64,000 nt of DNA from Escherichia coli (GTDB lineage Bacteria; Pseudomonadota; Gammaproteobacteria; Enterobacterales; Enterobacteriaceae): NCBI RefSeq assembly GCF_003334315.1, contig NZ_QOWR01000012.1. One strand, 5' to 3'. Each line of letters begins with the position of its first letter. Position 1 is the first letter of the stretch. The position numbers and the translations under genes were made by a program. The notes beneath the pieces were generated by a model. It did not search any database and had not been told where the DNA came from. It saw nothing but the letters and a program-made list of their open reading frames with translations. Of this stretch, positions 20,288 to 61,732 are shown piece by piece.

Positions 20288-20362
20288 AAAAATTCGTTGT
20301 CAGGATAAGGACAATCAATAAAGGACTTCTGTATGAGTCATACAGAAAGAACAGGATTTTAA

Positions 20363-43104: not shown

Positions 43105-43515
43105 ATGAAGTGGCAACAACGTGTTCGTGTCGCAACGGGTCTAAGTTGCTGGCAGATTATGTTGCATTTACTGGTAGTGGCGCTGCTGGTGGTGGGCTGG
43201 ATGAGTAAGACTCTGGTTCACGTCGGCGTGGGATTATGCGCACTGTATTGTGTCACGGTAGTGATGATGCTGGTGTTTCAGCGCCACCCCGAGCAACGCT
43301 GGCGTGAGGTGGCAGACGTGCTGGAAGAGCTGACCACGACCTGGTATTTTGGCGCAGCGCTGATTGTGCTGTGGCTGTTGTCCCGCGTTCTGGAAAACAA
43401 CTTTTTGCTGGCAATTGCAGGGCTGGCAATCCTTGCCGGCCCGGCGGTAGTGTCTTTGCTGGCGAAAGATAAGAAGTTACATCACCTTACGTCTAAACAT
43501 CGCGTACGCCGCTGA
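43105..43515 (+). CDS. ybhQ: Inner membrane protein YbhQ
   Basis: 136-aa hydrophobic ORF; 3' end overlaps the convergent ybhR. Confidence 0.82.
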
Positions 43516-44583
43516 CCCTGTCGTGGCCGTTATCACCAGTAGCGGCCACAAACTATTCCACACAATATCCAGACTCGCATCCTTCAAATAAATCTGCTTG
43601 GTAATGTCCGTAAAGTGGCGAATAGGGTTAATCCACGTCAGGTTTTGCAGCCAAACTGGCATGTTTTCCACCGGCGAAACGTAACCGGAAAGGAGAATGG
43701 CGGGCATCATAAAGACAAACACGCCGATAAACGCCTGCTGTTGTGTCGAGCAGAGTGATGAAATCAACAGACCGAATCCCACCAGCGATAAACCGTAAAT
43801 CACCATCGTAAAGTAGAACAGCGCCAGCGATCCGGCGAAGGGGATTTGATACGCCCAGATACCAATCGCCAGCACAATGGTGGCCTGGAAGGTGGCGACA
43901 ATTAACGCCGGTACGGCTTTGCCGATGAAGATCTGCCAGGTGGTGAGCGGCGAAACCAGTAGCTGATCGAGCGTACCTTGTTCACGTTCGCGGGCGACGG
44001 AAAGTGAAGTGACGATCATTACGCCGATAGTGGTGATCATGGCGATCAGCGACGGCACCACAAACCATTTGTAGTCGAGATTCGGGTTATACCAGTTGCG
44101 TACTACCAGCTCGCTGTTGTTAGGTTTCGGTTTTCCTTCCAGCAGCTCCTGCTGATAATTTTTGACGATCTGTTGCAGGTAGTTGGCGGCAATCTGCGCA
44201 CTGTTGGAGTTACGCCCGTCGAGGATCAACTGCAAAGGCGCGGTCTGGAAGGTATCCAGTTTGCGCGAGAAGTCAGCCGGGAAACGCACCAGTAGTAACG
44301 CCTTTTGTGTGTCGATGGTTGGGCGGATCTCCTGTGGGCTTTTCAGCAGCAGCACATGAGTAAAGGCGCTGGCGCGGGCAAAACGTTGGGTCAGCTCCAC
44401 CGAATGCTCGCCGTTATCTTCATCGTAGATGGCGATGGTGGCGTTAGTCACTTCCAGCGTGGCGGCGAACGGGAACAGGATCACCTGAATTAGCACGGGT
44501 AAAATCAGAATCGCGCGGGTTTGTGGTTCGCGCAGCAACGACTGCAACTCTTTGCGGATTAACGTCCATAAGCGATGAAACAT
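43477..44583 (-). CDS. ybhR: ABC-2 type exporter permease
   Basis: 368-aa membrane ORF; last gene of cecR-ybhG-ybhF-ybhS-ybhR. Confidence 0.9.
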
Positions 44584-44593
44584 GCTCTTCTCC

Positions 44594-45719
44594 CTAATCC
44601 AGCCGACGTTTGGTTTTCAGCCACGTCAGGCCGATAAACATCACCGCCGAAGCGATCAAAAACAGCACGTTTACCACCAGCACCACTGGAATATTCCCGG
44701 CGAGGAACAGGCTTTGCAGGGTGCTGACGAAATAACGAGCGGGAATAATGTACGTCACCGCGCGGATCACCGCGGGCATACTGTCGATCTGAAAAATAAA
44801 GCCGGAAAGCATAATCGACGGCAGAAAAGCCGCGTTCAGAGCGACCTGAGCGGCATTGAACTGGTTGCGGGTTATCGTGGAAATCAGCAGCCCCATCCCC
44901 AGGGTACTGAGTAAAAACAGGCTGGAGATAAAAAACAGAATCAGCAGCGACCCGCGATACGGCACGCCGAGAATAAACACTGACACCAGCATACACAGCA
45001 ACATCGCCAGCATCCCGAGAAAGTAATAAGGGATCAGCTTACACAGCAGCAGTTCCGTGCGGGTAATCTCCGTAGAGAGCAGAGCCTCCATGGTGCCGCG
45101 TTCCCATTCTCGCGCCACCACCAGCGAGGTGAGAATCGCGCCGATGACCGTCATGATGATGGTCACCGCACCCGGGATAATAAAGTGCTGGCTTATCGCC
45201 GCCGGGTTAAACCAGTAGCGGGTTTGTACATCAATAAGCGGTTCAAAAGTCTGCCCGTTGTCCTCCGCTCGCTGCATTTGCCAGATCTGCCAGATCCCTT
45301 CGACATACCCCTGCACAAAGTTAGCGGTATTCGGCTCACTGCCGTCGGTGATCACCTGAATCGGTGCGGTGGCGTTGGCGCGCTCCATCTGTTCCGCAAA
45401 ATCCACCGGAATAACCACCAGACCGCGAATTTTCCCCGCCTGCATTTTGGCGATCAGTTCCTGACGGTTATCGCTGATGGTGGCGTCGATGTAGGGCGAA
45501 CCGGTCATGGTGTGGGTGAAATCCAGCGCCGCTTCGCTACGCTGTTCCAGTAAAATCCCGACCCGCAGCTTGCTGGAGTCGAGGTTAATGCCGTAACCAA
45601 AAATAAACAGCAGTAGCAGCGGGATCACTACCGCAATCAGCCAGCTACTCGGATCGCGAACGATCTGCCGCGTCTCTTTAACGCACAGCGCCCGTACGCG
45701 ACGCCAGGACAGGATCGGG

Positions 45720-45727
<8 letters not shown>
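44594..45727 (-). CDS. ybhS: ABC-2 type exporter permease
   Basis: 377-aa membrane ORF. Confidence 0.9.
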
Positions 45728-49118
<3,391 letters not shown>

Positions 49119-49131
49119 CGCACAGTCCATT

Positions 49132-49153
49132 CTTAATCAAATGATTGATTAAG
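49132..49153. promoter_or_regulatory. Candidate CecR operator: 9-4-9 perfect palindrome (cttaatcaa atga ttgattaag)
   Basis: Perfect dyad 14 bp upstream of the cecR start in the cecR/rhlE divergent region. Confidence 0.45.
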
Positions 49154-49346
49154 ATTATGACTCCATAGGGGAGTTGTCCAGTATGGCTAAGAATTTTAGC
49201 AACGCCAGTCACAGGGATAATTTATGCGCTGCGTCACAAAAACTGCTACACTCCGCTCCCTCATGACATTGTGGTTTTTGTCATTTTCCTTTTCAGTATC
49301 TCCCTGAAAACTACACCGGTAACGGTCGGGGCGGTTCGGAGTAGTT

Positions 49347-50711
49347 ATGTCTTTCGATTCTTTGGGTTTAAGCCCTGATATCCTGCGCGCCGTTGCCGAG
49401 CAGGGTTACCGTGAACCCACCCCTATTCAGCAGCAGGCGATCCCTGCGGTGCTGGAAGGCCGCGACCTGATGGCTAGCGCCCAGACCGGCACCGGCAAAA
49501 CAGCGGGCTTTACGCTGCCGCTGTTGCAACACCTGATCACTCGCCAGCCGCACGCCAAAGGGCGTCGTCCGGTACGTGCGCTCATTCTTACCCCGACCCG
49601 TGAACTGGCGGCGCAGATTGGCGAAAACGTCCGTGATTACAGCAAATACCTGAACATTCGTTCGCTGGTGGTGTTTGGTGGTGTGAGTATTAACCCGCAG
49701 ATGATGAAACTGCGTGGCGGCGTTGATGTGCTGGTGGCAACCCCGGGACGTTTGCTGGACCTGGAACATCAGAATGCAGTGAAGCTGGATCAGGTTGAAA
49801 TCCTCGTCCTCGATGAAGCTGACCGCATGCTCGACATGGGCTTTATCCACGATATCCGTCGCGTGTTAACAAAACTACCTGCGAAGCGCCAGAACCTGTT
49901 ATTCTCCGCGACCTTCTCTGACGATATTAAAGCCCTGGCGGAAAAACTGTTGCACAACCCGCTGGAAATCGAAGTGGCACGCCGCAATACCGCGTCTGAT
50001 CAGGTGACCCAGCACGTTCACTTTGTCGATAAGAAACGCAAACGCGAATTGCTGTCGCACATGATTGGGAAAGGGAACTGGCAGCAGGTGCTGGTGTTTA
50101 CCCGTACCAAACACGGCGCTAACCATCTGGCTGAACAGCTCAATAAAGATGGCATCCGTAGTGCGGCGATCCACGGCAATAAATCGCAAGGTGCGCGTAC
50201 TCGTGCGCTGGCTGATTTTAAATCGGGCGATATTCGTGTACTGGTGGCAACTGACATCGCTGCGCGCGGCCTGGATATTGAAGAGCTGCCGCACGTCGTC
50301 AACTATGAACTGCCAAACGTACCGGAAGATTATGTCCACCGTATCGGGCGTACCGGTCGCGCGGCTGCTACCGGTGAAGCGTTGTCGCTGGTGTGTGTTG
50401 ATGAACACAAACTGCTGCGTGATATCGAAAAACTGCTGAAAAAAGAGATCCCGCGCATTGCGATTCCGGGCTATGAGCCGGACCCGTCAATCAAAGCCGA
50501 ACCGATCCAGAACGGTCGCCAGCAACGTGGCGGCGGCGGTCGTGGGCAAGGTGGTGGTCGCGGTCAACAGCAACCACGCCGTGGGGAAGGTGGCGCAAAA
50601 TCTGCAAGCGCGAAACCTGCAGAAAAACCGTCTCGCCGCCTCGGCGATGCCAAACCGGCAGGCGAACAACAACGTCGCCGCCGTCCGCGTAAACCTGCCG
50701 CTGCGCAGTAA
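49347..50711 (+). CDS. rhlE: ATP-dependent DEAD-box RNA helicase
   Basis: 454-aa ORF with Walker A (AQTGTGKT), DEAD box, SAT and HRIGRTGR motifs; Arg/Gly-rich C-terminal tail. Confidence 0.95.
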
Positions 50712-60805: not shown

Positions 60806-61732
60806 ATGTCCGCCCAGAAACCGGGGTTGCATCCGCGCAACCGTCATCACAGCCGCTACGATCTCGCCACGCTTTGTCAGGTCAATCCTGAACTCAGGCA
60901 ATTCCTCACGCTTACACCCGCCGGGGAGCAAAGCGTAGACTTTGCCAATCCGCTGGCGGTGAAGGCGCTCAATAAGGCGTTGCTGGCCCATTTTTACGCC
61001 GTAGCGAACTGGGATATCCCCGACGGTTTTCTCTGCCCACCAGTACCGGGCCGGGCGGATTATATTCATCACCTTGCCGATTTACTGGCAGAAGCAAGCG
61101 GAACAATTCCAGCGAATGCCAGCATTCTGGATATCGGCGTTGGTGCGAACTGTATTTATCCGCTGATTGGCGTACATGAATATGGCTGGCGTTTTACCGG
61201 TAGTGAAACCAGCAGCCAGGCGTTAAGCAGTGCGCAGGCGATTATCAGTTCTAATCCGGGGCTTAACCGCGCCATTCGTCTGCGTCGGCAAAAAGAGAGT
61301 GGGGCGATTTTTAACGGCATCATCCATAAAAACGAGCAATACGACGCGACCTTGTGTAACCCGCCATTCCACGATTCCGCCGCTGCGGCACGGGCAGGTA
61401 GTGAGCGTAAACGCCGTAACCTGGGGCTGAACAAAGACGATGCACTGAACTTTGGCGGCCAGCAACAGGAGTTGTGGTGTGAAGGCGGTGAAGTCACCTT
61501 TATCAAAAAGATGATTGAAGAGAGCAAAGGCTTCGCGAAGCAGGTGATGTGGTTTACATCACTGGTATCTCGTGGTGAAAACTTACCGCCGTTGTATCGT
61601 GCCCTGACGGACGTGGGCGCGGTGAAGGTGGTTAAAAAAGAGATGGCCCAGGGGCAAAAGCAGAGTCGCTTTATTGCCTGGACCTTTATGAACGACGAGC
61701 AGCGCCGCCGTTTTGTCAATCGCCAGCGTTAA
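60806..61732 (+). CDS. rlmF: 23S rRNA m6A1618 methyltransferase
   Basis: ORF trimmed to [19 protein letters not shown] (308 aa) with NPPF methyltransferase motif. Confidence 0.9.

Follow-up and report, generated by a model that had tools for sequence, protein, structure and literature searches.

An inverted repeat on the predicted cecR promoter of Escherichia coli is almost certainly the operator of the TetR-family regulator CecR

In Escherichia coli, a short AT-rich inverted repeat lies in the spacer between cecR, which encodes a TetR-family regulator, and the divergently transcribed rhlE gene. The question raised by this locus is whether the repeat is the site at which CecR controls its own operon, as had been proposed from the sequence, or whether it serves another protein, another gene or the messenger RNA. 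The stretch of DNA that we analysed (64,000 nucleotides, referred to below as the window) is chromosomal DNA of E. coli. Many E. coli chromosomes match the 1 kb around the dyad at 100% identity, 5424 of 5426 complete genomes contain a match at 95-100%, and positions 49100-49360 (261 nt) show 100% identity with K-12 BW25113. The features discussed here are collected in Table 1. The genes ybhG-ybhF-ybhS-ybhR (43477-48444, minus strand) encode a membrane-fusion protein and an ABC exporter, ybhGFSR is co-transcribed with cecR (PMC12998191), and the divergent spacer between cecR and rhlE measures 228 nt. Assignment of the regulator as CecR rests on the NCBIfam equivalog NF008587, which it matches with 416.7 bits against a cut-off of 365. 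The TetR_N helix-turn-helix (PF00440) is present in this adjacent regulator together with the CecR_C domain (PF09209), as it is in all close homologues. The protein also matches PDB entries 9i1x, the crystal structure of CecR, and 1t33, Salmonella YbiH; none of the PDB structures matched is a CecR-DNA complex.

Table 1. Positions of the genes, promoter elements and repeat discussed in the text (window coordinates; a dot marks features given without a strand)
Feature	Positions	Strand	Remarks
cecR (ybiH)	48447-49118	-	TetR-family regulator, first gene of the operon; RefSeq
ybhG	47449-48444	-	RefSeq
ybhF	45720-47456	-	RefSeq
ybhS	44594-45727	-	RefSeq
ybhR	43477-44583	-	RefSeq
rhlE	49347-50711	+	divergent DEAD-box helicase gene; RefSeq
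E. coli inverted repeat	49131-49154	.	10-bp arms TCTTAATCAA/TTGATTAAGA, 4-bp centre ATGA; from sequence and repeat finder
conserved operator core, 20 bp	49133-49152	.	TTAATCAA-N4-TTGATTAA; perfect palindrome TTAATCAATCGATTGATTAA in most other genera
inferred cecR -10 hexamer	49152-49157	-	TAATCT; the operator core begins with its last T
inferred cecR -35 hexamer	49175-49180	-	TGGACA; 17 nt from the -10 hexamer
predicted cecR transcription start	49145	-	A; 7 nt after the -10 hexamer; inferred from promoter geometry

The repeat finder placed the arms at 49131-49140 (TCTTAATCAA) and 49145-49154 (TTGATTAAGA), where they are 100% complementary with 4 nt between them, and the resulting 24-mer ends 12 nt upstream of the annotated cecR ATG. 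The 9-bp arms described earlier, cttaatcaa-atga-ttgattaag at 49132-49153, are exact, and one further pair extends them to 10 bp. The original prediction had also called this element a perfect 22-bp palindrome. The inverted repeat itself stands, but since the central ATGA is not self-complementary the element is a perfect inverted repeat whose arms are 4 bp apart, and "perfect palindrome" was loose wording. A chance palindrome was rejected as unlikely: when the 228-nt spacer was shuffled 20,000 times with its dinucleotides preserved, only 0.14% of the shuffles (P about 0.0014) contained a perfect dyad whose arms measured 10 bp or more and were separated by no more than 8 nt. A terminator was also considered and rejected, the dyad being AT-rich, devoid of a T-run and positioned upstream of a gene. 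Across the window, five loci carry a perfect dyad of that quality against 0.9 expected, the others being mostly GC-rich stem-loops that appear terminator-like by eye. The 20-bp core of the repeat is unique in the window at up to two mismatches, and the sole other match at up to three mismatches, at 61499-61518, has three.

Further dyads were seen elsewhere in the window. The ybhH-ybhI spacer contains a perfect AT-rich dyad at 20327-20347 (TTCTGTATGAGTCATACAGAA; 10-bp arms, 1-nt centre), which looks like another operator-type site, and a perfect dyad with 9-bp arms (TGTTGGATCTGATCCAACA) lies within the zitB coding sequence at 2479-2497. The bioD/uvrB spacer carries two inverted DnaA-box-like 9-mers at 31582-31606 (GTTATCCAC-N7-GTGGATAAC), which are probably the DnaA boxes known from the control region of uvrB.

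We then examined conservation of the dyad by scanning one genome per species, which yielded 80 Enterobacteriaceae cecR loci (Escherichia, Citrobacter, Salmonella, Kluyvera, Enterobacter, Klebsiella, Raoultella, Kosakonia and others) with 73-99% protein identity. A core of the form T(T)AATCAATC-NN-TTGATTAA was found directly upstream of cecR in all 80 loci, two of them with a single mismatch, and no other palindromic element upstream of cecR is fully conserved in these species. The 8-bp arms TTAATCAA/TTGATTAA are unvaried in 78 of the 80, and the flanking DNA drifts. Across 79 distinct sequences, the information content reached 1.99 bits per position in the arms and 1.75 bits in the centre, against 0.71 bits in the promoter spacer and 0.41 bits between the dyad and the ATG. 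Arm pairs 9 and 10 of the E. coli repeat (TC/GA) are not conserved in other genera. The operator centre is TCGA in almost all genera, which makes the core a perfect 20-bp palindrome (TTAATCAATCGATTGATTAA); it is TCGT in some Kluyvera, and TCAT (ATGA on the plus strand; 49141-49144) in all Escherichia and in one other Enterobacteriaceae genome. This lineage-specific change breaks the 20-bp palindrome and might tune repressor affinity. Judged by cross-species conservation, the functional unit is the 20-bp core and not the E. coli-specific 22-24 bp. Such an inverted repeat, with perfect 10-bp arms in E. coli and a perfect 20-bp palindrome in most genera, suits a symmetric homodimer. Within the species, a comparison of four E. 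coli strains, among them the most divergent one from a sample spread over the ranking, placed all SNPs at 49160-49169 or 49186-49257, sparing the dyad, the TA of the -10 hexamer and the -35 hexamer. Arms that never vary cannot, by their conservation alone, tell which protein reads them.

On the cecR side, the motif TAnnnT keeps the same gap-free distance to the dyad in 80 of 80 loci, its T, A and T invariant, and TGGACA stands at a fixed offset in 71 of 80 (1.77 bits per position). From this arrangement we infer that TGGACA-N17-TAnnnT is the sigma-70 promoter of cecR, with a probable start near 49145. A generic promoter scan of the cecR/rhlE spacer called no sites, because TAATCT matches the -10 consensus at only 3 of 6 positions and falls below its thresholds. 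With a start near 49145, the operator core would extend from about -7 to +13. The distance from the centre of the dyad to the cecR ATG is 22-26 nt in 79 of the 80 loci. An alternative start codon was also seen here: an in-frame ATG at 49130 (49119-49130, minus strand; MDCA-MNNP...) adjoins the dyad and opens the longest ORF, of 227 aa. As the true start of cecR this codon was rejected; it is kept in E. albertii and is not conserved beyond Escherichia, so the annotated start of the 223-aa protein stands.

The position of the predicted promoter bears directly on the idea that the dyad acts not as a DNA operator but through an RNA hairpin, formed in the 5' leader of the cecR transcript, that affects stability or translation. 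If transcribed, the region would fold at -14.8 kcal/mol (z = -3.15), and the hairpin would sit just upstream of a weak Shine-Dalgarno sequence. The conserved hexamers, however, predict a start within the left arm, so that the hairpin would be absent from the RNA. Moreover, there was no compensatory change in the 80 species: the only two arm substitutions, each in a single locus, are one-sided and uncompensated, which is the signature of sequence-specific reading by a protein. Most genera lack pairing at the outer positions 9-10, and the region had no Rfam match. We consider an RNA hairpin extremely improbable.

A protein other than CecR that could read the dyad is IHF, as ATCAA-N4-TTGAT amounts to a symmetrised IHF consensus, and the element might primarily be an IHF site whose bending shapes the divergent promoters. 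The consensus WATCAANNNNTTR is matched by the dyad on both strands at 49135-49150, which accounts for two of its three matches in the 64-kb window, and distant homologue loci keep the consensus-bearing bases. IHF sites are asymmetric, however, whereas the constraint on the dyad is symmetric and includes both the N4 centre and the outer TT/AA. The invariance of these outer bases and of the central 4 bp (1.75 bits) exceeds IHF specificity, so the dyad differs from an IHF site in being conserved outside and between the consensus bases. It is also tied to one regulator family, tracking cecR-family genes at a fixed promoter offset. Purified CecR alone selects the cecR/rhlE spacer in gSELEX (PMC5934670), and among the papers accessible to a literature search none links IHF to the cecR locus. 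An element that is primarily an IHF site is very unlikely. Slightly less remote, though still improbable, is a dual use suggested by the consensus match, in which the operator would double as a symmetric IHF consensus site and IHF and CecR would compete or cooperate on the same 20 bp. Through IHF, the exporter operon and, indirectly, the divergent rhlE promoter would then respond to growth phase, and an interplay of IHF with CecR might account for the reported "activation" of rhlE.

The divergent arrangement raises the further question of which gene the site serves. The dyad had been described as lying at the start of cecR-ybhGFSR in a region shared with divergent rhlE. Its location at the start of that operon, inside the divergent spacer, held; a control function shared with rhlE is not supported, the distance to rhlE being unconserved. 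From the dyad to the rhlE ATG there are 179-311 nt, and 1110 nt in one further locus, and the dyad is 61-316 nt from a conserved block on the rhlE side. The 2.5-kb upstream flank contains no rhlE in four loci (K. pneumoniae, K. spallanzanii, K. grimontii and Pluralibacter), all of which retain the dyad; the upstream gene in K. pneumoniae is a co-directional LysR gene, and the spacer of 73 nt keeps TGGACA-N17-TAAAGT and the palindrome. Since the cecR offset is fixed and the rhlE distance variable, the site belongs to the cecR promoter module. By the same sequence comparison, any effect that the site may have on rhlE is exerted from a position that is not conserved.

These distances also weigh on the view that the main role of the dyad is that of an upstream activator site through which CecR acts on rhlE, autorepression being secondary. 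Reporter assays place rhlE under positive control (PMC12998191), and PDB entry 9i1x names the protein a "dual regulator". A site devoted to rhlE nevertheless fits poorly with such variable spacing and with the retention of the dyad where rhlE is not nearby, and the CecR i-modulon comprises five genes that behave as repressed (PMC6892915). We therefore regard a primary role in rhlE activation as highly doubtful, and favour a site for repression of the cecR operon.

The rhlE 5' leader itself (49225-49346, plus strand) is near-invariant across 16 genera. In its consensus fold, an upstream ACUCCG pairs with the Shine-Dalgarno sequence CGGAGU, and a further helix is formed by GUGGUUUUUG/AAAACUAC. 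Covariation is almost nil because the sequence hardly changes, and the leader matched no Rfam family. It could be an autoregulatory or temperature-sensitive leader of the DEAD-box helicase gene.

If CecR reads the dyad, the two may be expected together in more distant relatives as well. The best 120 of 474 CecR homologue matches are all close relatives, at least 76% identical, and distant homologues were for this reason taken from a search of 50%-identity cluster representatives, which returned full-length CecR_C-domain proteins at 37-59% identity. Their recognition-helix segment is almost invariant. The distant contigs carry the same type of operon, with genes for a TetR protein, a YbhG-like adaptor and an ABC ATPase (ybhG/ybhF-like); the downstream genes are partly visible in the short contig of the homologue at 59% identity, and only remnants are present in the two contigs at 50%. 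Upstream of the regulator gene, the homologue at 59% has a 30-bp perfect palindrome (TAAACTTAATCAATCGATTGATTAAGTTTA), and the corresponding elements are TTAATCATATGATTGATTAA at 50%, AATCAAACGATTGATC at 43% and TTAATCAATCGATTGAcc at 40%. The minimal core common to these four levels of identity is ATCAA-N4-TTGA(T). The same core is not seen at 46%, where the upstream region gave no clear match to it, or at 38%, where a different dyad (TTACACAATCG-N15-CGATTGTGTAA) was found. The dyad thus accompanies cecR-family genes to a protein identity as low as 40%. The dyad at 38% flanks a TTGACA-like hexamer and shares only the inner motif CAATCG/CGATTG with the enterobacterial operator.

We next compared the dyad with what has been published on CecR. 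The abstract of Yamanaka 2016 (Microbiology 162:1253) reportedly states that the footprint holds "a complete palindromic sequence of AATTAGTT". Read 5' to 3', AATTAGTT does not occur in the cecR/rhlE spacer; it is the complement of TTAATCAA, that is, TTGATTAA backwards, and so corresponds to the invariant 8-bp arm written 3' to 5'. Literature searches for the printed operator, using the dyad in both orientations and AATTAGTT with CecR, returned unrelated papers only. The CecR (YbiH) site in this spacer is curated in EcoCyc/RegulonDB. PMC12998191 credits Yamanaka et al. 2016 with finding the CecR recognition sequence in the cecR-ybhGFSR/rhlE spacer, and places cecR-ybhGFSR under negative and rhlE under positive control. 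Papers citing that study describe CecR binding by gSELEX, gel shift and footprint (PMC12998191, PMC5934670), and by genomic SELEX CecR is a single-target regulator with its target in the cecR/rhlE spacer (PMC5934670). ChIP-exo of YbiH agrees with SELEX and gave a palindromic, AT-rich motif, whose repeats "separated by 7 nt" are an inexact fit to a dyad of even length (PMC6237786). Knockout of cecR leads to over-expression of a 5-gene module, from which CecR was concluded to be a repressor (PMC6892915). The affinity of CecR differs among antibiotics, being highest for cefepime (PMC12998191), and the same paper attributes to Yamanaka 2016 the finding that CecR senses cephalosporins and chloramphenicol.

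Taken together, the identity of CecR, conservation across 80 species, overlap with the predicted promoter, linkage in homologues and the literature support the original prediction of a likely operator for the TetR-family regulator. Its second element, autoregulation by CecR, agrees with the reported repression of cecR-ybhGFSR (PMC12998191) and with the over-expression in the knockout (PMC6892915). The dyad is almost certainly the CecR operator on the cecR promoter, and the best explanation overall, to which we assign a probability of about 0.9, is that CecR binds the dyad and represses its own gene and ybhGFSR from its own promoter. A CecR homodimer, or a pair of dimers, would bind the symmetric core TTAATCAA-N4-TTGATTAA, which shares its first base with the end of the -10 hexamer and includes the predicted start. 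Because the core overlaps both, bound CecR would block transcription, probably at open-complex formation or promoter escape, and so repress cecR and ybhGFSR. Once a ligand occupies the C-terminal domain, CecR would leave the DNA and repression of the exporter would be lifted; the ligands described in the literature are cephalosporins and chloramphenicol. The exact transcription start, the occlusion mechanism and the stoichiometry are those we infer.

The operator is already known experimentally, from 2016. Genome, spacer and regulator are all the same for the dyad and for the CecR site of Yamanaka 2016, and as far as the citing papers describe that site there is no substantive difference between the two. 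To this the present analysis adds the ancestral 20-bp palindrome, its footprint across genera and the change of centre in Escherichia, as well as the overlap with the inferred -10 hexamer and transcription start. It also shows the site to be independent of rhlE and extends the motif to homologues of 40% identity. The result is of little consequence outside annotation. Cephalosporin and chloramphenicol sensitivity have been linked to the ABC-type exporter operon under the control of this site, and CecR is a core regulator of Escherichia and Salmonella. The motif is usable for predicting CecR-family regulons in other Proteobacteria, and the minimal operator TTAATCAA-N4-TTGATTAA provides a DNA design for a CecR-DNA co-crystal, of which there is none yet.

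The proposed arrangement resembles that of known operators of the family. QacR, a TetR-family protein of Staphylococcus, represses a drug exporter and is released by drug binding. As predicted for the CecR dyad, the QacR site IR1 of qacA is a long inverted repeat placed just past the -10 hexamer and over the start site. IR1 comprises 28 bp and binds two dimers, whereas the CecR core comprises 20 bp; in gene order, cecR heads the operon that it controls, and qacR is transcribed divergently from its target. The TetR/tetO and AcrR/acrAB systems share with the arrangement proposed for CecR homodimeric helix-turn-helix proteins, palindromic operators over efflux promoters and autoregulation. In contrast to the CecR core, tetO has 15 bp with a central base pair, and AcrR recognises a 24-bp inverted repeat located in a divergent spacer. 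The tetO and AcrR sequences are unrelated to TTAATCAA, and CecR is set apart by its CecR_C ligand domain (PF09209).
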